From positions 35,245 through 99,244 of IMG/VR virus record IMGVR_UViG_3300037485_002668: 64,000 bases of DNA; one strand, given 5' to 3'. Made by a program: the position numbers and the translations under genes. Numbering within the stretch: the stretch's first letter is position 1; each line of letters begins with the position of its first letter. Under the pieces are notes generated by a model that saw only the letters and a program-made list of their open reading frames with translations, searched no databases and was not told the DNA's origin. This DNA is from a virus. Of the stretch, positions 17,858-40,284 are shown piece after piece.

Positions 17858-18955
17858 TTAACTATGGGTATCCAGACAGCTTAGGCCGTTTTTATCGATC
17901 ACGTGCATGGCAACGCGTTTCGAAATCACATAGCGTTCCTTTTGCTTTTCGATAATCCGATCAGTTTCGGTTAACAGCATGTTGTCGTTGGTGACATACC
18001 CTAACGCTTCGTCATCGGTGCCGAAAATACGGTCGGACGTCACGGTCGAGGTATCCCATTCGTAAAACGTGGGTAACTGAATACTGGTAAAGCCCCACTG
18101 TACGGGTGGATTGTTCATTTTAACAAAAGCCGTCCACCAGAGTACGCCCATGGCTTTCACGCCCAGACAGTTGCTGACGATATACGGTTTCGGCGGCTTC
18201 GTGGCAAATTCCACAATATCGCCTTCCACGATAATATCATTAGTGGCTACCGTAGCCGTGTTCCCAGCAGGGAGGCCGTTGCTATTGGCAGTATTGTCAC
18301 CATTGATAATCATGTAAACCATATTATCGGTTTCGGTAATCGCGATTTGCTGACCCACGCGCTGCAATACAGTGGCAACTAATGGTAACGGAACGTCTTT
18401 AATTTCTTCATAATTGAACAGAAATTGTTTACCGTATTTTTGCAAATTGACGGTCTGTTCGCTGACGGCCATGGTCACTGAGGGGAATTCCCCACCCGCG
18501 CCAACCACCGCGAACGTCCGCTGCGCTTCGGTGTCATCCAGGTAAACCTTTTTGTAAGACATACCTTTGATGACAGTATAATTTTTAATAAAAACCTGGG
18601 TCAAGCCCATTTTCATCGCGCCGGCGTAAACCTGCAACGACACATATTCCGCGAACAGGGTCGTGGTGGCGGAGGTGGAGAAAAACTTTTCCACCGGGTC
18701 GGCATAATTTCCAAACGCGTTGACGCCGTAATATTTAATAATTTCTTCAATCGCCGTATCAGGTACGGGCTGATTCGATTTACGCAACTGATGTTTCAAT
18801 TGATAAATTTCAAAGTTTGACTTTTGAGAATACAAAGATGGGCCGATGGCCTTTTCACGTTGATTCTCCAGCCAAACACGCAGGGGGTAGCCTTCCATTG
18901 CGGCTTGGGTATAGACCCCTTTATCGAGGTTGAGAGATTTAATCCAATCTGACAT
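17858..18955 (-). CDS. Major capsid protein (HK97 fold)
   Basis: 365 aa; VGAGGEFP...V.LQKYG..F.FNYE motif; synteny. Confidence 0.85.
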   Translation of the reverse strand: MSDWIKSLNLDKGVYTQAAMEGYPLRVWLENQREKAIGPSLYSQKSNFEIYQLKHQLRKSNQPVPDTAIEEIIKYYGVNAFGNYADPVEKFFSTSATTTLFAEYVSLQVYAGAMKMGLTQVFIKNYTVIKGMSYKKVYLDDTEAQRTFAVVGAGGEFPSVTMAVSEQTVNLQKYGKQFLFNYEEIKDVPLPLVATVLQRVGQQIAITETDNMVYMIINGDNTANSNGLPAGNTATVATNDIIVEGDIVEFATKPPKPYIVSNCLGVKAMGVLWWTAFVKMNNPPVQWGFTSIQLPTFYEWDTSTVTSDRIFGTDDEALGYVTNDNMLLTETDRIIEKQKERYVISKRVAMHVIDKNGLSCLDTHS

Positions 18956-26366: not shown

Positions 26367-26631
26367 TCGCAGGCTCCTCGGGTTTGGGGGTTACGGGTTC
26401 AGGATTAACGATAGTGGGTTTGGGATTCAATGGTTCATTTAGTTTATTAATAGCCGCGTTTAAATTTTCAAATTCCGTGATGATAATTTGAATGCACGTT
26501 TCCACCAGGCGATCCCGAATCAGGATTGAATCGGTGGGGAGTTTCAGCGCCAGATAATCGCCGGTATTTGGGATATAACGGTCATTCGATAAAATAATCA
26601 GGGCAGTTTTTAATTTTTGCGTATTTTTCAT
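26344..26631 (-). CDS. Hypothetical protein
   Basis: ORF track; likely ATG 26631. Confidence 0.55.
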   Translation of the reverse strand: MKNTQKLKTALIILSNDRYIPNTGDYLALKLPTDSILIRDRLVETCIQIIITEFENLNAAINKLNEPLNPKPTIVNPEPVTPKPEEPANAPVPLQ

Positions 26632-26640
26632 AAATTTCCC

Positions 26641-26669
26641 TTGACAATATAAAAAATTATGCTTACATT
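26641..26669 (+). promoter_or_regulatory. Sigma70-type promoter on the plus strand
   Basis: TTGACA-17 bp-TACATT. Confidence 0.6.
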
Positions 26670-26675
26670 TAAATG

Positions 26676-26773
26676 ACAAGTATTTTGTCAAATCCGGTCA
26701 ATTTGCAAAATGCTTGCATGGATAGAGTCCGGTGTATAAAGCCCTGTTTGTAAGAGTGCAAGCGGGGCTTTTT
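26676..26773 (+). ncRNA. Candidate ~100-nt small RNA
   Basis: Lies between the promoter and a plus-strand terminator (AAAGCCCTGTTTG...CAAGCGGGGCTTTTT); no ORF. Confidence 0.45.
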
Positions 26774-26789
26774 GCGATCAGTTGGCGTC

Positions 26790-26810
26790 CCACCCAGACA
26801 AGCCGGGTGG
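26790..26810 (-). repeat. Junction element, copy 6 (hairpin only)
   Basis: CCACCCAG-ACAAG-CCGGGTGG; box not recognisable. Confidence 0.7.
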
Positions 26811-26840
26811 AAACGGGGGCGGACTCTTGGTCAGGTTTGT

Positions 26841-27845
26841 TCAGGGACGCAGGGCGGAAATTTCGCCGGGGGTCCAGGGAACCTGATATGGCGACGGGCG
26901 ATTCCAGGGGGAATTGACCGGGATGCCGGTGACGGACCAGACGGGTTCCCGTTCGCAGCGACAATTCGGATGGGTATCGCTGACGGGATACGGGCCTTCA
27001 CCATGACGCCAGACCTGGCCATCCAGCGCAGCGCAAATTTGACAACAGCCGGCAAAAGCCCGCCATTGATCGTAAGGCACACCAGCGGCATCAGCCATGC
27101 GGTCGTAAGATGCGTTTAACTGAAGCTGCATTTCACTACGTACCGTGCGCATCCACCACCAGGATTGACCTTCCCCCACATTCAAATGTAACCAACGGGC
27201 GATTTCCATCGCATCCGCTTCCCGCTGCGCCATTTCAGGGAGTACCGATTTCAATAATTTAAAATAGTCTTTGCCAATTTTTTCACGCAGGCGACCCGCG
27301 GCGGCAAGACTGGCGGCGGTGAAATAGTCATCGGCGGAGGTAGGAACCACGGGCAGGAATGAATTGGGATCTTTCCATTCGGGTAAACTTTTTTGAATCA
27401 AATCATAAAACTTTTTCAGGCCATAGCTGAACATGGAAAACAGCCAGAACGCCAGGATTGCTTTCTCGGAACTGGACATATTATCTGAATTTTTCGCGCC
27501 GAGTAAGTCGGTTTGCCAATTATCCAGAATCCGTTTCAGGGCGGGTTCCGACATTTCGTCATATTCCCAGGGGTCGGCGGCTTTCTGAAAAGACGCGCGG
27601 ACGCGGTCGATGGCTGGCAGGCGGTACAATTTTAGTAAGTCAGTTTCGTATTCGGTGGTTTTATCCAGCAGGTCGGTTAGCAATTTGTTACTCATTTGGG
27701 ATACTTTTTTATCCGGATGCGGCGCGAGTAACAATTGCATTTCGGACGCGCTGGGTGTGGGTGCGTTGACTTTGGAATGAATACAAATGGCGGCGGGTTC
27801 GGGGATAATGAGTCCCTGAATGATGGAAAGGATACGGTCGTCCAT
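26841..27845 (-). CDS. Head morphogenesis / minor capsid protein (SPP1 gp7 / Mu F-like)
   Basis: RTVRSE...CCQICAALDG...HPNCRC. Confidence 0.85.
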   Translation of the reverse strand: MDDRILSIIQGLIIPEPAAICIHSKVNAPTPSASEMQLLLAPHPDKKVSQMSNKLLTDLLDKTTEYETDLLKLYRLPAIDRVRASFQKAADPWEYDEMSEPALKRILDNWQTDLLGAKNSDNMSSSEKAILAFWLFSMFSYGLKKFYDLIQKSLPEWKDPNSFLPVVPTSADDYFTAASLAAAGRLREKIGKDYFKLLKSVLPEMAQREADAMEIARWLHLNVGEGQSWWWMRTVRSEMQLQLNASYDRMADAAGVPYDQWRAFAGCCQICAALDGQVWRHGEGPYPVSDTHPNCRCEREPVWSVTGIPVNSPWNRPSPYQVPWTPGEISALRP

Positions 27846-27874
27846 GCGAAAATCCTTAAATTAATTTAATAAAT

Positions 27875-28702
27875 TCAGAATAAATTTCCTTGTTTTAAAA
27901 TCGGGTCTAAACGTTTTTTTATAATCTCGCAATATTCAGGGCTGATTTCGGAACCAATCCAGTTCCGTTTTAACTTAATTGCCATTTTCGCCGTGGTACC
28001 GCTGCCCATAAACGGATCGTAGATTAAATTTCCTTCGTTGCTCCAGCTTATAATGTGGTCGGCAGCAAGTTGTTCAGGGAATATGGCTGGATGCTCAAAA
28101 GCAATTTTGTCTTTACTAGTATTATTAAACGAAACAATATAACTCCAAATGTTTGATATACATTTATCATTTTGTTTTACTTGGTAAATGTGCCTATCCT
28201 TGCATCTACCGTTTTCATCTCTAATGGCGTGATAATTTTTCAATCTTTTGTCTGATTTAGGTTCTAAAATCAAATTCGTAACTAACGGAATCCCCTTCGA
28301 AAGTATGAACATAAACTCAAATAAATTTTTATACCTATTTGTAGACGGAACATTATTTGCAAGTTTATTATAAATCATCGTATCGTGGATATTAAACCCA
28401 ACCTGCCTGAAATAAATCTTCTGGTAAGAACTGGCTAAACTTTCCGACCCGTTTATGGTCATATCGCCAACCACCCATACCACCACGCCGCCCTCTTTGG
28501 TCACTCGGTAAAGTTCCTTCGCAATCGCTTTAAAATCCCAGGTATAACCTTTATAGGTACGGAAACCATTTTTCGGTATAGGGTTAAAATCGGCATCCAT
28601 ATCATCGTAAGGTGGACTGGTCACCGTTAAATCGATAAAATTATCCGGCATCCGTGCCATGGTGTCCAGACAATTTTCACAGTATACTTTATTGATTTCC
28701 AT
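27875..28702 (-). CDS. DNA methyltransferase, N4/N6 beta class
   Basis: TSPPY, HPAIFP, DPFMGSGTT. Confidence 0.92.
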   Translation of the reverse strand: MEINKVYCENCLDTMARMPDNFIDLTVTSPPYDDMDADFNPIPKNGFRTYKGYTWDFKAIAKELYRVTKEGGVVVWVVGDMTINGSESLASSYQKIYFRQVGFNIHDTMIYNKLANNVPSTNRYKNLFEFMFILSKGIPLVTNLILEPKSDKRLKNYHAIRDENGRCKDRHIYQVKQNDKCISNIWSYIVSFNNTSKDKIAFEHPAIFPEQLAADHIISWSNEGNLIYDPFMGSGTTAKMAIKLKRNWIGSEISPEYCEIIKKRLDPILKQGNLF

Positions 28703-28713
28703 ATTAAATCACT

Positions 28714-29436
28714 TTAAATTTCCTGTGGTTCCTGTTTTAGTTGCGCAACGATTTGGAACTTTTCGATTTCGGAATTGCGGGGTTGTTGAAAATAGAAAAT
28801 ATCGTCTTCCCAGGGGATCGGGCGGCGGCGACCCACGCCACAAGGAAGTGGTTTGAACACGTCTTCAAAAGTACGGTGAAACAATGGTTCCGGATATTCG
28901 TTGGTATTCAGGCCGTCCAGGATTTCCGGGCTGGAAGTGCGATAGATGAATTCCCGCAGGAAATCGTGACGGATCCAAATCAGTGATTGTTCCGCCCAGC
29001 CGGGCATAAACGAAATCCCTTCGCCAAAACCGTAACTAATGGGGCAGGTTTGAAGGTACGGGATTAATTTTTCCACGCCCCAGACCAGACAATCCTGTTC
29101 AACGAATAACAGGTCGAAATGGTTCATTAAGGCGTATTGGGCGGCCATAATCAACGTGGCGTGGAAATCGTGCTGGTGGGGGAGTTGCTGCGCGTCCAGG
29201 TAGCCGGTGACGATGGTTTGGGAAATGGGCTGAAAGTATTTCAACGGCAACACGGGCGGAGTCGGGCAGTTGGAAACGTAAATGAAATAGTGCGCGGGTT
29301 TCAGCCATTTTTCCAGCGGGGGGAGCCAGTAATGGTTGAGCCAGTACGGATCCAGGCACTGTTGGCTGCGGTTGGGGTTGGCGTGGGCGGTAGGGGCGCT
29401 GAACCAACCGGTGGCGAGGAGGAGGTTTTTGAACAT
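28714..29436 (-). CDS. Putative GT-A fold sugar transferase-like protein
   Basis: LFVEQDCLV (DxD-like) motif; cargo context. Confidence 0.4.
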   Translation of the reverse strand: MFKNLLLATGWFSAPTAHANPNRSQQCLDPYWLNHYWLPPLEKWLKPAHYFIYVSNCPTPPVLPLKYFQPISQTIVTGYLDAQQLPHQHDFHATLIMAAQYALMNHFDLLFVEQDCLVWGVEKLIPYLQTCPISYGFGEGISFMPGWAEQSLIWIRHDFLREFIYRTSSPEILDGLNTNEYPEPLFHRTFEDVFKPLPCGVGRRRPIPWEDDIFYFQQPRNSEIEKFQIVAQLKQEPQEI

Positions 29437-29459
29437 AGTTTTTTCCTTCCATTGGTTTT

Positions 29460-29726
29460 TTAATCACCAATTTTTTCAGATATCTTTTTTAATTCGCCGG
29501 CAAACCATATAAATTCAGTATTTTTGGCTGCTCTGTCTTCCAGCATATTACTTAATATTTCTAGTTTTTGTTTTGCCCACGACAGCCGGTTCTTTCTCGA
29601 AATGTTTTTCGATAATTCAGTACTAATAAATTCAAATGCCCAGGATGGTATTTCAAAAAATCCGACTTCAGGAATTTTGTTTAAAGGATAGCCATAATTT
29701 CCGGGATAAAATTTGATAGTTTCCAT
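29460..29726 (-). CDS. Hypothetical protein
   Basis: ORF after a repeat copy, SD AGGA. Confidence 0.6.
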   Translation of the reverse strand: METIKFYPGNYGYPLNKIPEVGFFEIPSWAFEFISTELSKNISRKNRLSWAKQKLEILSNMLEDRAAKNTEFIWFAGELKKISEKIGD

Positions 29727-29743
29727 AATAATTCCTGTTTTTT

Positions 29744-29780
29744 GCTGTCAATCATCATTCCACCCAGGCAAGCTGGGTGG
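29744..29780 (-). repeat. 37-bp junction element, copy 7 (downstream of cysH)
   Basis: GCTGTCAATCAT-CATT-CCACCCAG-GCAAG-CTGGGTGG. Confidence 0.95.
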
Positions 29781-29804
29781 TGTGGATTAAATTTTTTTAT
29801 ACCT

Positions 29805-30548
29805 TCAAAGATAACTTCTGATTTCAGGACATTTCGTAACTAAAAAATTGAACTGCTCAGGATAGTTCCGTTTCAAAAACAGATAAAATCCACGCTCGCC
29901 AATACTTAAAATATACCAATTTACACGAATCCACTCACGTTCCGGAATCGTATTGGCTTTTAAATAAATCGGATGGTATTCGTAGTCCGAATGAGTTATA
30001 AAAGAAAAAATATCATTGGCGTCTAAATAGGCGACGGGATAACAACTAAAAGCCTTAAAAGATTTGTTAAAAAAATAAGTGCCATTGACGCCAATGGTCA
30101 TTTTACGGGCACGGCTTTCCTGAACCCGGATCCCGGTAATCACCAGGTCATATTCCTTGTTCGTATTCCACCAGGGTTTTAAAATTTCCTTATTGACTTT
30201 ATTAATCGCCGTCAAATCAAAATACCCGGCCGTTAACTTTGCAATCAAAGGGTCAATCTTGGGATTAATTTCCCTTAAATTAAAGCCCAATTTTTCAGCG
30301 GCGGCCTTTACAAATGAATCAGTTTCAGGAAATTCGTAACCACTATTGAACCAAACCAACTCAGGCGTAAGGTTCAACTGTTTACACAAAATCGCACAGG
30401 TCAAGGAGTCTTTGCCGCCGCTAAAAGACAACGCTATTTTCTGTTTATTTTTACTGGCATTCTCCAGGATCAATTTGGCCCGTTTTATTTTTAGCATGAC
30501 CCGATTATTTTGATAATTCATCAAATCGAATTGCGTAAATTTATGCAC
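29805..30548 (-). CDS. cysH: PAPS-reductase family (CysH-like) protein of type IV-B CRISPR-Cas
   Basis: SFSGGKDS PP-loop, GIRVQESRAR; adjacent to csf genes. Confidence 0.85.
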   Translation of the reverse strand: MHKFTQFDLMNYQNNRVMLKIKRAKLILENASKNKQKIALSFSGGKDSLTCAILCKQLNLTPELVWFNSGYEFPETDSFVKAAAEKLGFNLREINPKIDPLIAKLTAGYFDLTAINKVNKEILKPWWNTNKEYDLVITGIRVQESRARKMTIGVNGTYFFNKSFKAFSCYPVAYLDANDIFSFITHSDYEYHPIYLKANTIPEREWIRVNWYILSIGERGFYLFLKRNYPEQFNFLVTKCPEIRSYL

Positions 30549-30551
30549 GGT

Positions 30552-31307
30552 CTACGCCCTGGCCAATGGTTTCAACTTAGTACCCGCAGGATATGAATTT
30601 ACTGGCTTTGAATTTATACCATAATACGGCGGACAAATTGGGCGCATTTCTATAAAATCATTTTCAGGAAACCAGCCTTTTTGTTTACAATAATCGACAG
30701 GCAAAGGACGCATTAATTTATCATAACGCATTAATGCAAAAGACGAATTGCCATTTTGTTTTTCAATTTCCCAGGTACATTCACCCCAACCGACACTATG
30801 CTTTTTACCGATATGAGCGGGATTGGGGATTATTTTTTTCAGCAATTCGATATTGCCTTCGCCAAAAATTTTATAATGCTTACGGTCAGAATATAAAGTT
30901 GGCATCAGATACGATTTAAAATCGCCTTGTTGGACGGAAACGCGTTTTGCATTTACCGAATTTAATAGTCGCTTTTCAAAACGTTTAGTCCAGTAAGTTG
31001 ATTTTTCAGGCAAATCAAAGAGATAACTACACATATAAAAAAAAGTATCTTTAAACTGGACTTTAAAAAGTGGAATCGTAATGGGCACCAACTCATCATG
31101 ATCATAACTCAAATTGAAATAATCAGATTGCAATACGTAAAGCATGGTATAGTGTGCAATCACCGAATCAAACGCCAAAATATCATTGCCACTGCGACCT
31201 GTTTTAAATTCAAGATGAATGATAAAATTTTCATTCAGTGCGCTTTTACGGGTCAGATTATTCCAATTTTCGACTTTGTTTAAAATTGAAGGTTCTAATT
31301 TTCGCAA
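30552..31307 (-). CDS. csf3: Type IV Cas5-like RAMP (Csf3)
   Basis: LAFDSVIA, IGKKHSVGWG glycine loop, RPLP, RPICPPYY. Confidence 0.8.
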   Translation of the reverse strand: MRKLEPSILNKVENWNNLTRKSALNENFIIHLEFKTGRSGNDILAFDSVIAHYTMLYVLQSDYFNLSYDHDELVPITIPLFKVQFKDTFFYMCSYLFDLPEKSTYWTKRFEKRLLNSVNAKRVSVQQGDFKSYLMPTLYSDRKHYKIFGEGNIELLKKIIPNPAHIGKKHSVGWGECTWEIEKQNGNSSFALMRYDKLMRPLPVDYCKQKGWFPENDFIEMRPICPPYYGINSKPVNSYPAGTKLKPLARA

Positions 31308-31318
31308 GGTAGCATCCG

Positions 31319-32506
31319 TTATTTTTTTAAATTTAACTGGTTCAGAGTGGCTTTAATTGCATCGCGCTGATTTGTTAAAAATGAATTTGCTAAAGTCGGA
31401 TCTAATTGCTGATCGTAACAGACGTTAATTTTCCCAAAACCCGCCCGGCTCATGCCACCGATTTTTCCATCTTCAGCAAAGAGAGTTAGCATCAAATGCA
31501 AAAAGGCGGTTTCAACTTCATTCAAATAAAAATGATCAACCGACCAATTAAACAGACAGCCCGCTTCCATCGCCAAAATAGAATAAAACATCTGAACATG
31601 CGAACCGCCCAATTCAGCCTGCCATTCTGGCGTAATAGCACCTTCATAATCATCTACCCGCGTCATGAAATATTCTTTAAGATAGCTAATCGCAGGCCGG
31701 TCATTCTGGCCGTTTTCCATACAATGTAAATGGGCAAAATTGACATTTATTTTGCCGGGCAAATCTTCGTTTCCAATCATGGCGCCTAAAATAGACAAAA
31801 ACGGCAATTTTTCACGTAGCTCCCGTTTGGTTGCAATATCCACAAATCCAGTCGATTTGGTTAACATACCGCCGCTAAAAAGAGTATGGTAAGCTTTCGG
31901 TTCATAAATTTGATGGGGGTCGGCGTTCTCAAAAACAATTTTTGTGACATAAGCCATAAGTTGATCCCGCATCCGGCCACGAATTGAATTGCCTGGGATA
32001 GTCGGAACCAAGAAGTCTGATTCGGTAGTAAGGATGTCTTCAGAAATAACGAACCCCTCGCGGAAATTGAAGGATTCGGTTTGGTAAATGGCCGCAGCTA
32101 CGAACAGATCAATATTTTCACGCGCCCACTGAAGAATGTTCAAATTTTCATCTTTTGAAAGTCCGAAAGCAAATTTAGTGGTATATTGATAAAAAGACGG
32201 CTCCGCTATTGGCAGGTGTTTTAAAAGATTAGTAAAAAATTGGGAGATCGTCGAGCTACACAAAGCGGCAAACACACGATCCCGAAACGCTTCGGTAAAT
32301 GAACGGGAACCAAAATTATCTTTATTGCAGTTACGATAAAACGAACCGACACATTTAATAAGCTCTTCAGCGATTTCTTTTTTAATAACAATCGTTTTTT
32401 TTGAATGCGGGACATGAATCATATAGGGAAGCTGAATGTTCCCCGATTTATCCCCACCTACGAAAACAGGGTCAATTGCGGTAATCGTTGCGTTTATTCT
32501 GGACAT
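31319..32506 (-). CDS. csf2: Type IV Cas7-like backbone (Csf2) with an inserted helical Cas11/Csf4-like domain
   Basis: VPTIPGNSIRGRMRD, LFSGG, LP.LS.LG..IGN..L.GK, IGGMSRAGFG; helical insertion at ~aa 40-145. Confidence 0.85.
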   Translation of the reverse strand: MSRINATITAIDPVFVGGDKSGNIQLPYMIHVPHSKKTIVIKKEIAEELIKCVGSFYRNCNKDNFGSRSFTEAFRDRVFAALCSSTISQFFTNLLKHLPIAEPSFYQYTTKFAFGLSKDENLNILQWARENIDLFVAAAIYQTESFNFREGFVISEDILTTESDFLVPTIPGNSIRGRMRDQLMAYVTKIVFENADPHQIYEPKAYHTLFSGGMLTKSTGFVDIATKRELREKLPFLSILGAMIGNEDLPGKINVNFAHLHCMENGQNDRPAISYLKEYFMTRVDDYEGAITPEWQAELGGSHVQMFYSILAMEAGCLFNWSVDHFYLNEVETAFLHLMLTLFAEDGKIGGMSRAGFGKINVCYDQQLDPTLANSFLTNQRDAIKATLNQLNLKK

Positions 32507-33183
32507 GTTTTTACCTCTTCTGTTTTGATTTTATAAAGTGAATTAACCATTAATTTAAATTGTTCCGTATGTCGGACGGGTTGTAATTTTTTATAATCCG
32601 AAAAACTTAGGCTGTACTTTTGAAATTTCCAGGGTGGAATCGTACCGGCCAGCAGTTCATCTTTGGTACATTTATTTTCATAAAATGATTTTGCGATTTT
32701 ATAAAAATCAAACCACCGGGAGCGTTCAAACTGGATATTCAAGTTGTCAGTACAGACGTAAAATAATGCTGAATTATGTGAAACAAGCGACTTAAAAGCA
32801 ATATGTTTTTTCCCGCTCTGGCTAAAAACCAGAATAAACGGCGGGTTAAACGAATGTTCAAATAGATAGAACGGCTTTTCACTAAAGTCGATTTTAATAA
32901 ATTGATTGTTTTCTACCAGGTACGAATACAATCGCAAGCCACACCGCGCACCTTTGGGGCTTGCCAGGCTTTCATCGGAAAGTGAAAAAACGCAAAAATC
33001 ACAAAGTACGTCGGATTGTTTGTACCTCAGCATATTATAATCGGTAAAGTTGCCTGAAAAAATCTCTTTAGCTTTACGCCATTCTGACATGATTCGCGTG
33101 CCACCACATAGACAGCAGGTTTGGTCAGAATCGATTCCTGGCTTTTGCGTGATGGCGGTTACGATAAATTCTGTGTTGGTCAT
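32494..33183 (-). CDS. csf1: Type IV Cas8-like large subunit (Csf1)
   Basis: CCLCG...FSGNFTDY...SDVLCDFC zinc finger; PPF...SQSGKKH motif. Confidence 0.8.
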   Translation of the reverse strand: MTNTEFIVTAITQKPGIDSDQTCCLCGGTRIMSEWRKAKEIFSGNFTDYNMLRYKQSDVLCDFCVFSLSDESLASPKGARCGLRLYSYLVENNQFIKIDFSEKPFYLFEHSFNPPFILVFSQSGKKHIAFKSLVSHNSALFYVCTDNLNIQFERSRWFDFYKIAKSFYENKCTKDELLAGTIPPWKFQKYSLSFSDYKKLQPVRHTEQFKLMVNSLYKIKTEEVKTCPE

Positions 33184-33197
33184 GTGGCCTCTTTTTG

Positions 33198-33234
33198 GCT
33201 GTCAATCATGATTCCACACGGGCAGGCCGTGTGG
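33198..33234 (-). repeat. 37-bp junction element, copy 8 (upstream of csf1)
   Basis: GCTGTCAATCAT-GATT-CCACACGG-GCAGG-CCGTGTGG. Confidence 0.95.
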
Positions 33235-33244
33235 TGATATTGGG

Positions 33245-34003
33245 TTATTCAAGTAATGTCAGGTATTCGTTCCAAATCCAGGTGTCACGGATGTCTTTTA
33301 ATTCGGATTTGGGCCAGGTGTCGGGCTGGCGTTCGACCAGGGATTTATAATGCGCGCCCCAATAAATGAGATCCATTTTCTTTTCCCAGGCCAGTGTACG
33401 GCGGGCAAGTTCGGCCTCTTTGCGCTGACGCCAATCGGAACGGAGCCAATAGTGCAAGGTTACGAGTTCATCGTGTTGCAGGATTTGGCGATTGGGGGCG
33501 GCCAGGCGTTCACCGTCAATTTCCAGGTCGGCGTGGTATTTGAACGCTAACTGGATGGGTAAATCGACTTTGTCTTTATAAAAAAAGTATTGGGTGCGGG
33601 GGTCAAAATGGTCGTTTTCGTCACCCGTGTAAAAGAAATTGAAAATATGCGCGAAGTCGATGGTATTGAAACCCTGAGCGTCTGCCAGTTCGATAAAGCT
33701 GCGCAAGGTGCGATGACGGCGGACGTAATAGAACATGTCCATACCGGCAATGACCGCCCAATCGGGTTTTAATTTATGCACGGCGGCGGTGTACTGGGCG
33801 TTCAATTTGGCCAGGGAAAAGATACCCTGGGTGTTGAACCGCTCGCCGGGGCAGCCGTTGGCCTGAAGATATTCCCATGAGCCGTCGGAGGACATGTTAT
33901 CCAGCGAATAGACGGCGTCGAATTCCTGTTCTTTGGCGTATTGGAGTTTGTATGGGAGCAAGGCCAGTTCGTTGTACAGGCATTGAAATAAAATGATTTT
34001 CAT
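33245..34003 (-). CDS. Glycosyltransferase family 2-like
   Basis: YNE...LDNMSSDGSWEYL...PDW motif. Confidence 0.8.
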   Translation of the reverse strand: MKIILFQCLYNELALLPYKLQYAKEQEFDAVYSLDNMSSDGSWEYLQANGCPGERFNTQGIFSLAKLNAQYTAAVHKLKPDWAVIAGMDMFYYVRRHRTLRSFIELADAQGFNTIDFAHIFNFFYTGDENDHFDPRTQYFFYKDKVDLPIQLAFKYHADLEIDGERLAAPNRQILQHDELVTLHYWLRSDWRQRKEAELARRTLAWEKKMDLIYWGAHYKSLVERQPDTWPKSELKDIRDTWIWNEYLTLLE

Positions 34004-34021
34004 AAATAGATTCTCAGGTTT

Positions 34022-34870
34022 TTATTTACTCAAATTTTGTTCGGGATAAAGTTCCCAAACCTTTTTTTGATTTTGGTTTGCCAAATCCCGGTATTTGGGG
34101 TCGAGCAGTTGCGCCAGTACGGGCGGCGGTACCGTGCTCATTAATTGAAAATGGGTCGCGGGTTTGAAAGGCGGCGACGGGTTCGTGAAAAAATCGTCAC
34201 GGTTGGAAACGTTATTCAATCCCGAAGTGTTCAGACTTAAATGGAAATCGGAGTCGGGCGTCCAGTCGACATTTAACGGCGCGGCTTTTTGGGCGGTGAA
34301 TTGTTGGAAAAGCCAATGGTCTACAAAACGGCGGGTCTGGCTGACGGGAACTTTTCGGAACCAGTCGGTTTTAGCGCCTATGTCCAATGAGCAGCGGGAA
34401 CTGGAGGGGACGGGGTAACTCTGATAATCAAATTCCAGGGTGCGTTGGGACTTGAAATCGAAAAAATAACCACGGCGGGCTTGAATCCAGTCGGGCGGAT
34501 TCGGACTGGAAAAAAGTTCCCAGGAATTACGCAGGCGCAAGGGGTGGGAATAGCAATCCGCCGCCTGGAGTAAGAAACCCAGGGAGGTGGGGCTGGCCAG
34601 GTTCCCCAACAAACGCCATTTTTCGGATAGGGGAATCCAACTTTGCAGGGGAACATATTCGATACGGGCGCAATTGACCAGGGTCAGGCGGTCGGCATAG
34701 GTTTCGATGGCGGCTTGACCTAGCGGAGAATCGAATTGTTCCTCGGCAATCAGGAGTTCCCAGCGGAAATAGGAAAAGATAACGTCCTGGCGGCAAAGGG
34801 ATTCGAGCGCGAGCCAGGCGATGTTCTGGGCGCGATAGAGGGGCAGAGCGACGGTGAGGGTGATGTTCAT
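34022..34870 (-). CDS. GT-A fold glycosyltransferase-like protein
   Basis: LTVALP...ALESLCRQ...WELLI; AADCYSHP.RL. Confidence 0.65.
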   Translation of the reverse strand: MNITLTVALPLYRAQNIAWLALESLCRQDVIFSYFRWELLIAEEQFDSPLGQAAIETYADRLTLVNCARIEYVPLQSWIPLSEKWRLLGNLASPTSLGFLLQAADCYSHPLRLRNSWELFSSPNPPDWIQARRGYFFDFKSQRTLEFDYQSYPVPSSSRCSLDIGAKTDWFRKVPVSQTRRFVDHWLFQQFTAQKAAPLNVDWTPDSDFHLSLNTSGLNNVSNRDDFFTNPSPPFKPATHFQLMSTVPPPVLAQLLDPKYRDLANQNQKKVWELYPEQNLSK

Positions 34871-35184
34871 CTGTAGGGTCCTTGGCTGTCAATCAGGTTT
34901 CCACCTGGCCTGTCCAGGTGGGGGAATAGATTATTTTTTAGTTGTTCGGCTTGTTCGTAGGTGGCGTCATCGACGTAGGATAATTCGGAAAAGCCACTCA
35001 GGGAATAGCCGACAAGCTGGGCAAATTGAATACGGTCTTCGTCTGAAAAATCCATCAGGGCAAGTTTGTTCAGATCATGTGGCCCATGTTCAAGCAAAAA
35101 TTGGACAATGGCATTGGCCTTGAAACGCAACGTGCCATGTTGGTCTTGAATAAGGGGTTGCAGGGGATGGGATTTATTTTCCAT
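34867..35184 (-). CDS. Hypothetical phage protein; 3' end reads through a repeat copy
   Basis: HPLQP...RFKANAIV...QFAQLVGYSLSGF. Confidence 0.75.
   Translation of the reverse strand: MENKSHPLQPLIQDQHGTLRFKANAIVQFLLEHGPHDLNKLALMDFSDEDRIQFAQLVGYSLSGFSELSYVDDATYEQAEQLKNNLFPHLDRPGGNLIDSQGPYR
34885..34921 (-). repeat. 37-bp junction element, copy 9
   Basis: GCTGTCAATCAG-GTTT-CCACCTGG-CCTGT-CCAGGTGG. Confidence 0.9.
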
Positions 35185-35185
35185 G

Positions 35186-35222
35186 GCTGTAAGTCATCCT
35201 TCCACACGGGCGAGCCGTGTGG
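35186..35222 (-). repeat. 37-bp junction element, copy 10
   Basis: GCTGTAAGTCAT-CCTT-CCACACGG-GCGAG-CCGTGTGG. Confidence 0.9.
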
Positions 35223-35236
35223 TGAGTGGTGTATGG

Positions 35237-35548
35237 TTAATTGCGCGGGGGGATTAGGTTTTTGTCCCGCAAATATAGAATTAATTCTTTGACCAGCTTT
35301 TTGCTGGCAACGAAACTTAGAATACCCATCACTAAACGGGTTTTGCGGCTGAGGCCGTAAGAGGCGTTTTCGATGGCGCTGACCCGATTTTTGGGATGGG
35401 AGAAACCCAGTAGTTCGCCGAACAATCGTTGCGAAATGCCGAGGCATTGGCGCAAGCGATAGACGGGGTGTTGACGTTTTTTGAGGGCTTTGGCGGAAAC
35501 CTTCGGGACGGAACTGGTTTTCGGGAGGTAATTTACGGTTTTTTTCAT
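35237..35548 (-). CDS. Cro/XRE-like HTH protein
   Basis: RLRQCLGISQRLFGELLG...VSAIEN. Confidence 0.7.
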   Translation of the reverse strand: MKKTVNYLPKTSSVPKVSAKALKKRQHPVYRLRQCLGISQRLFGELLGFSHPKNRVSAIENASYGLSRKTRLVMGILSFVASKKLVKELILYLRDKNLIPPRN

Positions 35549-35557
35549 TAATAGTCA
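35529..35557 (-). promoter_or_regulatory. Candidate sigma70 promoter overlapping the HTH gene start
   Basis: TTGACT-17 bp-TAAATT. Confidence 0.45.
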
Positions 35558-35598
35558 AGCAAAATTTTCAAAAATTTTTAGGGTTTGCTGGCGGAAAA

Positions 35599-36531
35599 TT
35601 AAGCAGGCAGGGTTTCGTCAAAAAAAGTTGGCGCTTTAACACGGTCTTCTATGCGTGTGCTGGCGGTTTGAAAATACTTGGGATCCTTTTCGATACAAAT
35701 CCACTTTCGGTTCGTGTTCATGGCGGCGATGGCAGTGGTACCGGAACCCGCGAAGCCGTCAAATACGGTATCGCCTTCGGATGTGTAGGTGCGAATCAGG
35801 TATTGAAAAAGTTCAATAGGTTTCTTTGATGGATGTTTAATTTTATAACGGCCTGATGTCAATGACTGAATTTTAATAATATCTATCGGATGTTTTTTAC
35901 CATCAAATGCAAGTTGATGTTCTTGAGGCCGACAGTTGGAATAATGGCTACTCTTTATATCACTTTTTCTACATTTTACTATTGCCTTCTCGCCTATTTT
36001 AAAACGTTTTAAAGATGATTCACTTCTAAATACACGGATTGGATTAAAAGTAAAACAGCTATCTTTAGAAAAAATCAAAACTTGTTCCTGTACTTTAAAT
36101 GGACGTACCTTTAAATTCATAAAATTTGAATTACCTCCTTTATCCCAAATCCACTCATATTTGAATCCATCTAACCAACTAATCACCAACAGGCTCGTAA
36201 ACGGCTGGCTACCAGTTAAGACAATCGCGCCGTTATCTTTGATGATTCGCTTGCGGGATTCCCAGTATTGCACCAGGTCAATTGGTAGTTTAAACAAGCG
36301 TTTGACAAAAGATTTTAACATATCCAGGTAAGCTTGATTTTCGCCGGGGTATTTTAACGCCTTCAGCCAGTTCAAGAAAGCGATTTGTTCGGCGTTGATT
36401 TGAGGCTTATCGAAAGCGCAGGCGGTGATGCCATAAGGGAGATCTTCGAGGATCATATCGATACTCTTATCGGGAACGTCACGAATCAGTTCAAAGGAAT
36501 CACCTAAATAAAGTTTGTTTAGTTCGAGCAT
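35599..36531 (-). CDS. DNA methyltransferase, N6/N4 beta class
   Basis: DLPYG, HPSKKP, DGFAGSGTT. Confidence 0.9.
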   Translation of the reverse strand: MLELNKLYLGDSFELIRDVPDKSIDMILEDLPYGITACAFDKPQINAEQIAFLNWLKALKYPGENQAYLDMLKSFVKRLFKLPIDLVQYWESRKRIIKDNGAIVLTGSQPFTSLLVISWLDGFKYEWIWDKGGNSNFMNLKVRPFKVQEQVLIFSKDSCFTFNPIRVFRSESSLKRFKIGEKAIVKCRKSDIKSSHYSNCRPQEHQLAFDGKKHPIDIIKIQSLTSGRYKIKHPSKKPIELFQYLIRTYTSEGDTVFDGFAGSGTTAIAAMNTNRKWICIEKDPKYFQTASTRIEDRVKAPTFFDETLPA

Positions 36532-37592
36532 GGCTGTTTCTCTGGTAAAATTGGGGTTGGTAGTTGACCTTTGCGCCAGCGGCGGAACATTTGTTTTAGT
36601 TCCAGGGCGCGGTGGTAATAGGTATGGTATTTTTCAATCAGACGGCGGCCAGACTGACCAATACGCACCGCGGCGGACGGGTGGCGGCGATAGTAATCGA
36701 TTAATTCAAATAGTTCCTGAATATTTTCGTACCAGACCAGGTGCTTGCGGTTCACAAACATTTCTTCAATACCGGCGAATTTGGTGACCAGAAACATGCG
36801 CCCCGTGGCCAGGCTGAGCCAGGTACGGTTGGACGTGGAACCATAAATTTCCCGATAATTTTGCACGCCCAAAACAATCCGGGCGCGGGACATCTGGTAA
36901 TTGGCATCGGATTCGAACGCGGCGGGCAGGTAAAAACACAATTGTTTCGGATCCCACCAGCGACCAACTATTAACATCTTGTACTGCCAGGCGGTGTTGT
37001 AAATTAAAAACTGGCGTTCCCGATTGGAATAGTCCAGGTAACGGGGCTGGGTAGATTTGTCGGAACCGATAAAAATCAGGTCAAAATCGCAGCGGTCTAA
37101 ATTATAATGCAGGGGATAATAAATTTCGGGATCAACGCCCTGGTGCCAGCATTGGATATTTTGCACGCCGGCGGTTTGGTAATTTTGCCATTGGGGGGGA
37201 TCCTGGTTATTCAGGAATAAGGCGTCACAAACTTTGCCCAGTTCGGATACGCGGCGGGTGAGAGCGCGATCCTGGTCGTAGAAATAAAAAAACGTGAACA
37301 TATCGGGGAACAATTCTTTAAACATTTTAATCTTCGCAGGGGTGGCGCTGTTATCGCTGAGCATCAGGATATCGGGGTGGAATTTAGCTACCTGATCTAA
37401 CAGCATTTCCGCCCAACTGGCGCCATGCTGAAGATGGCCGCCGCGATTATCGATTAAACGAACATTAAAACCCGCCTTTTTCAAGCCACGCAGCAATCCC
37501 GAACGGTGATACGGTGAAAAATTAGGTTCCAATTTTTGCCAGAAACTGCTATTTTCATAAGGCGCCAGGTGCATTAACTTTAAACGTGCCAT
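36519..37592 (-). CDS. GT-B glycosyltransferase (CgeB / Glyco_trans_1_2-like)
   Basis: GVDPEIYYP, DLIFIGS, ARIVLG...SNRTW..LATG. Confidence 0.8.
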   Translation of the reverse strand: MARLKLMHLAPYENSSFWQKLEPNFSPYHRSGLLRGLKKAGFNVRLIDNRGGHLQHGASWAEMLLDQVAKFHPDILMLSDNSATPAKIKMFKELFPDMFTFFYFYDQDRALTRRVSELGKVCDALFLNNQDPPQWQNYQTAGVQNIQCWHQGVDPEIYYPLHYNLDRCDFDLIFIGSDKSTQPRYLDYSNRERQFLIYNTAWQYKMLIVGRWWDPKQLCFYLPAAFESDANYQMSRARIVLGVQNYREIYGSTSNRTWLSLATGRMFLVTKFAGIEEMFVNRKHLVWYENIQELFELIDYYRRHPSAAVRIGQSGRRLIEKYHTYYHRALELKQMFRRWRKGQLPTPILPEKQPCSN

Positions 37593-39038: not shown

Positions 39039-40229
39039 TTATTGGTTATATTTTAACAGATAATCGGGATTAATGACTTTGAATGAAAGCTGGTGTTCGT
39101 AATTGCGAATAACCAAACCTTCACGTAAACAATCGGCGATGGTACTTTTACCTTTTGAATAATCGACCAGTTCCGGGATATTCGTGCAAGTTAATTTGCT
39201 GTAAAATTCCAGCACGGGAACGGATTGTAATTTTTCACCAGGGATGCCAGAATAATTCATATCCGTAATCCGGGCTAAAAGCACCGATGAATCGTAACGG
39301 GTCGGGTTGTTAATACTAAATACATTGAAAACATAAAAGCGCAGTTCTTTAAATTTATATGGATTATCGCCGACGCCGGGGCCAACGATTTCGCCTTGAA
39401 TGGCGAAAGTTTCGTGGAACAGATCGTAAAGCAAACGCAGGCGTTTTTCAATGGCATATTTCGCGGCGATTTTCCAGTAAGTGGTTTTTAACGTGCGGAC
39501 ATTTTTGGGGATTAAAAAATTACGGGAACAGACGCCAAATTCCAGACGGCGCCAGAAAAACAAAAAGCGGCGGGGAATCAAGAAATAAGTGGCGCTCTGG
39601 CCATCCAGCTTTTCGGTAATGTCCACCCGTAAATCCTGGGTGACTATTTTATCAAACACGGCCGGGATAGCCTGAATGCGGGCTTCATCGGTTTTTGGGA
39701 TAAAGGACGGGAACGGGAGGCGTTGCAAAAAAGTACGTTTCAGCCAGTCGGAATGACGTAAAAATTTAGCGAAGCGGGAATTAAAAATTGATTTTTGCTG
39801 CGCCAGAATTTTCGTTTCCTGTTCCGCCTGGGGATCGTGTTTTACAATATTCAAATCGTCAGTAACGTCGTCGCCTATATCGTTATAACGATTAATTAAC
39901 CTAAATAATTTTGTGGCGTCGGTATCTTTGATAGTGGAATGACCTTGGATTGGGTCCAGAATTGAAAGGGGAAAACAGATACCTTGCGAAACCTGGCCTT
40001 TGAGTTTAATGGTTTTGACGCGGAATTTACGAGTGCGCATAAACTCAAATTCCGGGCGGTCGGGCAGGATGGAATCCACTTCGACATACACGCAGGGGTC
40101 GCCGGGATTAAAATCGCCTTTTTTTACAACGACTTCCCAGCCCAGGACGGTAGCTTTTTCGATAGCATCGGCGCCGGGGATGGGGTCGAGTTTGATAATT
40201 TTTTGGATAGTGGCAAGGGGACGGGACAT
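39039..40229 (-). CDS. RNA ligase, DRB0094 (Rnl5) family
   Basis: N-terminal OB domain (PIPGADAIE...SQG), PKTDE.RIQ, TEKLDG, QGEIVG, EGLV, SFKVI. Confidence 0.9.
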   Translation of the reverse strand: MSRPLATIQKIIKLDPIPGADAIEKATVLGWEVVVKKGDFNPGDPCVYVEVDSILPDRPEFEFMRTRKFRVKTIKLKGQVSQGICFPLSILDPIQGHSTIKDTDATKLFRLINRYNDIGDDVTDDLNIVKHDPQAEQETKILAQQKSIFNSRFAKFLRHSDWLKRTFLQRLPFPSFIPKTDEARIQAIPAVFDKIVTQDLRVDITEKLDGQSATYFLIPRRFLFFWRRLEFGVCSRNFLIPKNVRTLKTTYWKIAAKYAIEKRLRLLYDLFHETFAIQGEIVGPGVGDNPYKFKELRFYVFNVFSINNPTRYDSSVLLARITDMNYSGIPGEKLQSVPVLEFYSKLTCTNIPELVDYSKGKSTIADCLREGLVIRNYEHQLSFKVINPDYLLKYNQ

Positions 40230-40247
40230 GATTTTTTTCCTTTTTTG

Positions 40248-40284
40248 GCTGTCAATCATACTTCCCCACGGGCAAGCCGTGGGG
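40248..40284 (-). repeat. 37-bp junction element, copy 12
   Basis: GCTGTCAATCAT-ACTT-CCCCACGG-GCAAG-CCGTGGGG. Confidence 0.95.

Follow-up and report, generated by a model that had tools for sequence, protein, structure and literature searches.

The stretch of viral DNA considered here, a window of 64,000 nucleotides (nt) comprising bases 35245-99244 of the 99,244-bp IMG/VR record IMGVR_UViG_3300037485_002668, carries a small operon that the present data support as a phage-borne, array-less type IV-B CRISPR-Cas effector with a CysH-like gene, in which Cas11, the small subunit, is found as a domain within the Cas7 backbone protein. Carriage of type IV-B by phages was already known (PMC10848311, PMC11656645), and what sets this module apart is the embedding of Cas11 in Cas7. 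The operon consists of four intact, co-directional and closely packed open reading frames (ORFs) on the minus strand, spanning 29805-33183 of the window (aa, amino acids):

32494-33183, minus strand: csf1, Cas8-like large subunit, 229 aa (PADLOC Csf1_0_IV, 9.7e-29)
31319-32506, minus strand: csf2/cas7, RAMP backbone subunit in its long form, 395 aa (PADLOC Csf2_0_IV, 2.7e-36, aa 155-392)
32051-32383, minus strand: Cas11 (small-subunit) domain within cas7, an all-helical insertion of ~110 residues at Cas7 aa ~42-152
30552-31307, minus strand: csf3/cas5, 251 aa (PADLOC Csf3_0_IV, 8.1e-24)
29805-30548, minus strand: cysH-like gene for a PP-loop protein (CasCysH), 247 aa (Pfam PAPS_reduct, 8.7e-18)

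A Cas11 domain within Cas7

The initial annotation had assigned the 395-aa protein to the RAMP superfamily, and the Pfam RAMPs family (37.7 bits, above the cut-off, aa 7-360), the Csf2_0_IV model and Foldseek matches to type IV Csf2 structures all bear this out. The Csf2 model begins only at residue 155, and the AlphaFold2 model of the protein, with a predicted local distance difference test score (pLDDT) of 81, consists of a RAMP core and an all-helical insertion formed by residues 43-151. The best Foldseek matches of this model are the type IV-A Csf2 chain 8rfj_D (3.9e-7) and the type IV-B Csf2 chain 7jhy_a (6e-6), with Cas7-11 chains also among the matches. A six-frame scan of the genome with the PADLOC hidden Markov model (HMM) Cas11_0_IV returned a single match, which lies inside the Cas7 insertion and covers positions 6-101 of the 114 in the model (E 3.6e-5), and 17 of 20 close Cas7 homologues match the same model, the best at 9.5e-7. 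When folded alone the insertion reached a pLDDT of 80 and, when this isolated fold was compared with 48,161 representative PDB chains, its best match was the IV-B Cas11 chain 7jhy_h (Z 9.4, root-mean-square deviation 3.7 over 104 residues), with the runner-up at Z 5.4. On the PADLOC HMMs and the structural alignment, the insertion can thus be identified as Cas11 with good, if not complete, confidence. The initial annotation had not noticed that Cas11 is present in this form. The insertion immediately precedes a nearly invariant aspartate (D164) and a PGNSxRG motif, a region that corresponds approximately to that of the Csm3/Csf2 "catalytic loop"; in the structure 7JHY this region faces the belly of the complex, where Cas11 is seated (PMC7937560). 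In canonical IV-B loci csf1 and csf2 are separated by a cas11 gene of its own (PMC8175902, PMC7038947). No such gene is present here; the csf1 and cas7 reading frames overlap by 13 nt and leave no space for it.

Subtype assignment and composition of the module

Three statements of the initial annotation concerned the gene content of the module: that csf1, csf2, csf3 and cysH form one AT-rich block, that the window holds no cas1, cas2, cas6, dinG or CRISPR array, and that the subtype is IV-B. ORFs, PADLOC, Pfam and GC values agree with the first of these. The second holds for the whole 99,244-bp genome, in which no spaced direct repeats of a CRISPR array were found and the models for Cas1, Cas2, Cas6 and Csy4, like two for type IV DinG, matched nothing; a cognate array with cas6 or dinG elsewhere, which would place the module in another subtype, was thus looked for on the complete genome and is absent. 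No helicase lies in or beside the operon, the RecD helicase of subtype IV-D not having been searched for genome-wide. The typing as IV-B is in turn upheld by the Csf1, Csf2 and Csf3 HMMs, the CysH-like gene and the lack of an array: the module has Csf1, a RAMP-fold Csf2, Csf3 and an adjacent PP-loop CysH-like gene without a catalytic cysteine, and it is devoid of CRISPR array, Cas6, DinG and adaptation genes. A separate cas11 gene, expected of IV-B, is missing, as Cas11 is a domain inserted in cas7, and the departure from the subtype is therefore one of gene set and not of subunit set.

Csf1 matches NCBIfam TIGR03114 at 1e-10 with 41.7 bits, below the 140-bit equivalog cut-off, and the cysteines of its CCxCG...CxxC zinc ribbon are invariant among four homologues. 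The HMM match supports the 251-aa protein as a predicted Csf3 (Cas5), and a profile of four Csf3 homologues weakly matches Csm4 (9g9a_G, E 0.005). In the CysH-like protein the SGGKDS PP-loop (SxGKDS) and a GxRxxESxxR motif are invariant among five module-linked homologues, no C-terminal cysteine is conserved among these five, and there is weak similarity to the SspD and BrxP PAPS-reductase modules of defence systems. Homologues of the module proteins are 36-62% identical with key motifs invariant and, together with the intact ORFs, this conservation implies function. Prediction of a complex of Csf3 and Csf1 with CysH as the partner gave a score of 0.00, which weighs neither for nor against binding.

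The GC content of the block is 0.36-0.41 and that of its third codon positions (GC3) 0.32-0.42, against a GC3 of 0.55-0.64 in neighbouring genes. The low-GC block takes in one more gene downstream, so that the four genes and this ORF together range from 0.28 to 0.42 in GC3:

29460-29726, minus strand: orf88, GC 0.33, GC3 0.28, of no known family and with no Pfam match

No orf88 was found beside the module in other loci, and its membership of the module is uncertain. A scan of positions 26500-37000 for sigma-70 promoters and intrinsic terminators performed no better than on shuffled sequence and gave the module no private promoter or terminator. The module is on the strand of the head genes, with a gene for MuF-like head morphogenesis 2 kb downstream, and the label "late operon" is only a positional one.

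Distribution of the long Cas7 form and mobility of the module

A Cas7 profile run against 1.84 billion representative proteins returned 725 matches whose lengths are bimodal, with one class of ~260-300 aa, comprising the core only, and another of ~390-480 aa. All 59 representatives of the long class match Csf2, while 34 of the 59 match Cas11_0_IV (best 7e-12) and 32 of the 59 match Cas11_1_IV (best 6e-16); a large subfamily in metagenomes therefore has the fused form. The profile found no relative in 50,697 GenBank phage records or in the species genomes of GTDB, and in PLSDB plasmids it recovered only core matches of 24-31% identity, from Rhodococcus, Mycobacterium, Gordonia and haloarchaea. 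The long form is not mentioned in PMC7038947, PMC8175902, PMC7937560, PMC10848311, PMC10910872, PMC12669027 or PMC11656645, and a prior description is possible.

The arrangement of csf1 followed by a long cas7, with no free cas11, recurs in two IMG/VR and four metagenome contigs, so that a free cas11 is absent from seven loci, this phage included. In the four contigs of adequate length (L009, L010, L012 and L014) cas5 is also present. The gene order in L010 is that of this phage, whereas in the viral contig L009 (7770-11161) it is permuted to cas5-cysH-csf1-cas7, with the cas5-cysH and csf1-cas7 adjacencies retained; a gene for a Cas4-like/YqaJ nuclease lies ~1.8 kb downstream of that module. 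In L012 a longer protein with PAPS_reduct and DUF3440 domains, encoded two genes past cas5, takes the place of CysH. The module of L014 (406-3787), consisting of csf1, long cas7, cas5 and a gene for a 245-aa protein, is open only under genetic code 25 (TGA = Gly), and the TGA codons in its reading frames fall at conserved glycine positions; an element with a host of the SR1/Gracilibacteria type therefore carries the module as well. Among the four module proteins conservation is lowest for CysH, at 26-28% identity.

All six module-bearing contigs have a GC content of 25-34%. A comparison of L009 and L010, the two viral contigs, against all ORFs of this phage found nothing else in common except a short methyltransferase motif in L009. 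Horizontal acquisition of the module from a low-GC source is well supported, both by its GC3 and by the presence of the same genes in otherwise unrelated low-GC phage contigs.

Relation to known systems

The nearest system for comparison is the IV-B locus of the Mycobacterium sp. JS623 megaplasmid (7JHY, PMC7937560), which likewise provides Csf1, Csf2, Csf3 and Cas11 functions without array, Cas6 or helicase. The core of its Cas7 aligns with the phage Cas7 (hhalign E 1.9e-6), and it is its Cas11 that superposes on the insertion with the Z of 9.4 given above. However, in JS623 cas11 is a separate gene of 155 aa between csf1 and csf2 whereas in the phage it is a domain inside Cas7, the Cas7 cores of plasmid IV-B systems are only 24-31% identical to that of the phage, and the carrier is an actinobacterial plasmid rather than a tailed phage. 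The IV-B locus of Fuxiviridae, viruses of Bathyarchaeia (PMC10848311), is likewise virus-borne and has Csf1, Cas7, Cas5 and a CysH-like gene beside Cas5. It differs in possessing a mini-array of two repeats and one spacer, whereas no repeat pair was found in the whole of this phage genome, and in belonging to an archaeal virus, whereas the host here is bacterial. Precedent for merged class 1 subunits, including Cas11, is offered by Cas7-11 (gRAMP) of type III-E and by the Csf3-Csf1 fusion of type IV-E (PMC7038947). These, however, are end-to-end fusions of several subunits, whereas the phage Cas7 accommodates just one Cas11, behind its first strands, and must itself still polymerise.

The hairpin junction element

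Two copies of a 37-bp element lie at the ends of the four-gene module, exactly where the initial annotation had placed them:

33198-33234 (33196-33236 in covariance model R1), minus strand: junction element preceding csf1, with 14 nt between its end and the csf1 ATG, 65.8 bits
29744-29780 (29742-29782 in covariance model R1), minus strand: junction element between cysH and orf88, starting 24 nt past the cysH stop, 63.7 bits

Each element is built of an 8-bp stem (CCACnnnn/nnnnGTGG) closed by a 5-nt loop, mostly CTTGC or CCCGC, and followed by a 6-nt spacer and GATTGACAGC. By the covariance model R1 the genome holds 27 full-length copies from position 27,044 to position 96,808, every one of them on the minus (coding) strand and the csf1-side copy having the top score; those in the window fall at 2709-61564, and the remaining four lie upstream of it (genome 27044-34942). 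Matches to the motif in the window number 15 against 0.68 expected. The stem covaries, with 97.6% of cells paired, changes on both sides in six of the eight pairs, and none of 500 shuffles scoring as high. Copies usually start no more than 15 nt after the upstream stop and often end no more than 15 nt before the next start codon, and their spacing, from 45 nt to several kb, mostly amounts to whole genes. The sole close-set copies in the phage are two elements in tandem at 2709-2794 of the window, 45 nt apart from start to start. The element is thus a phage-wide gene junction of the form stop-hairpin-motif-start, present at most gene boundaries of the phage, and not a cassette border. The initial annotation, which had not seen that the element is nothing special to the module block, took the two copies for brackets of an insertable cassette; this does not stand against 27 copies on one strand, a low-GC block that runs past the downstream copy, and other IV-B loci that do without the element.

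The element was found in no other IMG/VR contig, and it is absent from the long-form loci L009, L010, L012 and L014 and from the JS623 plasmid locus. Rfam at gathering thresholds has no match in the window, and no Rfam CRISPR-DR family matched around three elements at E <= 10; on spacing, Rfam and R1 scores, the elements are neither a CRISPR array nor solitary CRISPR repeats. A reading of the element as a sigma-70 promoter, suggested by its TTGACA, was rejected, since only 1-20 nt separate it from the next start codons and there is no conserved -10 box. A text search of the literature for the motif returned only unrelated primers and aptamers. Resemblances exist to REP/BIME and MITE repeats, which are likewise short GC-rich hairpins with many intergenic copies, the element also forming inverted pairs in the bacterial genomes, and to the SAS/ESAS sequences of Cluster K mycobacteriophages (PMC3203893), which like the phage element lie directly before start codons. 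It differs from all of these in that no GTAG or CGTC tag was seen and that the phage copies are single and in one orientation.

The element in bacterial genomes and the probable host

When genomes were scanned with a loose DNA pattern, most of the matches were single and due to chance, and only five loci with the full hairpin were informative. These lie in five bacterial genomes, namely three Planctomycetia/Pirellulales metagenome-assembled genomes (MAGs), a fourth MAG from Planctomycetaceae and a short contig that had been binned as Acidobacteria. The five hold from 10 to more than 70 R1 copies each, many at contig ends and many paired in inverted orientation, 100-160 bp from one another, with a long GC palindrome between them. 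In copy number, inverted pairing and stem covariation the element behaves as a REP/BIME- or MITE-like dispersed repeat. No cognate transposase (RAYT or insertion sequence) was identified, no search having been aimed at a partner transposase. The spread is patchy, with the element in one further genome of 120 sampled from Planctomycetota. Because the element is common to phage and planctomycete genomes, a planctomycete host is likely, and the host is accordingly described here as probably a planctomycete. The distribution also points to a phage that has taken over a dispersed repeat of host type for its standard junction between genes.

No Csf2 occurs in the five repeat-bearing genomes, and Cas1 is found in four of the five, with arrays at three of the cas1 loci. 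The type I-like repeats of the candidate-host arrays end in ATTGAAAC or ATTGAAGC. The arrays adjoining cas1 are at L143:3000-3861, L144:140-260 and L145:2640-2768, with repeat ends GTGGATTGAAAC or CCCATTGAAGCC. The I-C-type repeat of genome G005 shares the CTTGC loop and the ATTGAAAC tail with the phage element, and R1 left the CRISPR repeats of genomes G001, G002 and G005 unscored (best 4 bits, E 7.6). A blastn-short comparison of the candidate-host loci with the phage gave no spacer-like match.

A model for the function of the module

These data allow a model to be proposed, held with slightly better than even confidence, in which a horizontally acquired IV-B operon with Cas11 inside Cas7 provides the phage with a Cas7::Cas11 filament on RNA and with CysH as its effector, for use in conflict. 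It builds on the gene identities, the embedded Cas11, the absence of array, adaptation genes, Cas6 and DinG, the foreign composition and the recurrence in unrelated phage contigs, all of which are observed. In the JS623 IV-B complex, Csf2 forms a filament with one Cas11 at each Csf2-Csf2 interface and heterogeneous RNA bound (PMC7937560). Cas7::Cas11 may similarly assemble along RNA into a Csm-like filament in which the ratio of Cas7 to Cas11 is constant at 1:1, possibly capped by Csf3 and Csf1, and the insertion of Cas11 would thereby fix stoichiometry and shrink the effector to three proteins. The bound RNA would not be a phage CRISPR RNA (crRNA), since the phage itself lacks an array. CasCysH proteins have a PP-motif and no catalytic cysteine, which suggests ATP alpha-hydrolase activity or AMPylation and not that of a reductase (PMC8175902); the CysH-like protein here, since its PP-loop is intact and no catalytic cysteine is conserved, would be an effector acting by ATP-dependent adenylylation-type chemistry, possibly directed at the bound or targeted nucleic acid. 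The phage might use the module against host defence or rival mobile elements, which is a best guess for which two DNA methyltransferases and an RNA ligase nearby provide context. Several points weigh against this model. The Cas11 call depends on the PADLOC HMMs and one structural aligner; a Foldseek search with the insertion ranks 7jhy_g first only at E = 1, which is not significant, and hhalign of a three-sequence profile of the insertion against JS623 Cas11 detected no similarity. A phmmer search of the insertion against PDB sequences gave chance matches only. Csf1, Csf2 and Csf3 score far under the NCBIfam equivalog cut-offs and are therefore divergent members of their families. Finally, no function of any IV-B system has been demonstrated experimentally (PMC11656645, PMC12669027).

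Other models must be weighed against this one. The phage Csf complex might act as an anti-CRISPR by loading host crRNAs, with Csf3 on the 5' handle, and so starve host effectors. This idea, raised in PMC7038947, fits the position of the module amid likely counter-defence genes, including two methyltransferases, and would find its targets in the candidate host relatives, four of five of which have Cas1, three of the cas1 loci with arrays, and none of which has Csf2. It is nevertheless unlikely: those who raised it judged it so and noted that IV-B anticorrelates with other CRISPR systems (PMC7038947), the JS623 complex showed no preference for co-expressed type I-E crRNAs (PMC7937560), the identity of the host is unproven and its candidate loci hold no spacer-like match to the phage, and CysH would be left without a role. 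A comparably doubtful scenario centres on CysH, a PP-loop enzyme whose substrate would be DNA or the nucleotide pool and whose role might be, for instance, epigenetic or one of anti-restriction, with the Csf proteins serving only to target or regulate it. The resemblance to SspD and BrxP, the cas5-cysH adjacency that survives the permuted order of L009, and the methyltransferases and glycosyltransferases adjoining the module are in keeping with this. However, the lack of a conserved catalytic cysteine argues against sulfur chemistry of the Dnd/Ssp type (PMC8175902), and CysH, at 26-28% identity, is the least constant of the four proteins and is replaced in L012 by the longer PAPS_reduct and DUF3440 protein two genes away.

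A distributed array, in which the 27 hairpin-GATTGACAGC elements would be repeat-like nucleation or processing sites and the Csf complex would assemble downstream of each on phage transcripts, is very improbable. The version in which IV-B RNA comes from these junctions, with Csf3 binding the hairpin and tail, Cas7::Cas11 coating the adjacent transcript and CysH modifying it, would deserve equally little credence. If it were true, a CRISPR-derived machine would be running on a dispersed non-CRISPR repeat, and the origin of IV-B guides would be answered. The element does have a length of 37-41 nt, a covarying stem and a constant sense orientation, its commonest loop, CTTGC, and its ATTGAnAnC tail resemble the I-C-type repeat of G005, and type I-C offers a precedent in which Cas5 is able to process RNA without Cas6. 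However, the copies are spaced by whole genes and not by spacers, R1 fails to score the repeats of G001, G002 and G005, Rfam gives no CRISPR-DR match, the element is missing from L009, L010, L012, L014 and the JS623 locus, and in bacterial genomes devoid of Csf2 it is abundant as inverted pairs around a palindrome, like a mobile repeat. Least credible of all is a decaying passenger with no current function. Such a remnant might be expected to show the foreign composition and the lack of array and nuclease seen here, but none of the four closely coupled ORFs is broken, the catalytic and zinc-binding motifs do not vary even in distant homologues, and six or more further loci retain the same set, one of which uses a different genetic code.

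The phage module bears on type IV-B, which is alone among the widespread CRISPR-Cas subtypes in still having no known function or RNA source. A compact effector of three proteins, with Cas11 at 1:1 in Cas7, together with CysH on a complete phage, makes a clean experimental object. The long Cas7 subfamily is large in metagenomes and goes unmentioned in the plasmid- and isolate-based surveys consulted, and the hairpin repeat ties an uncultured phage to planctomycete hosts.

Genome context

The phage genome ends in 127-bp direct terminal repeats, its completeness is rated 100%, and it is that of a complete tailed phage. An ORF of 2,734 aa is taken, on its size, as the tape measure protein. A megablast search of the 9-kb region against phages gave no match, and no IMG/VR relatives of the MuF-like and major capsid proteins were found. 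Other features of the window are:

17858-18955: major head protein
26841-27845: MuF-like head morphogenesis protein
27875-28702 and 35599-36531: two N6/N4 DNA methyltransferase genes, on either side of the module region, GC3 ~0.40
33245-34870: two glycosyltransferase-like genes
39039-40259: RNA ligase

The two methyltransferase and two glycosyltransferase-like genes constitute an accessory island directly upstream of the MuF-like head gene.

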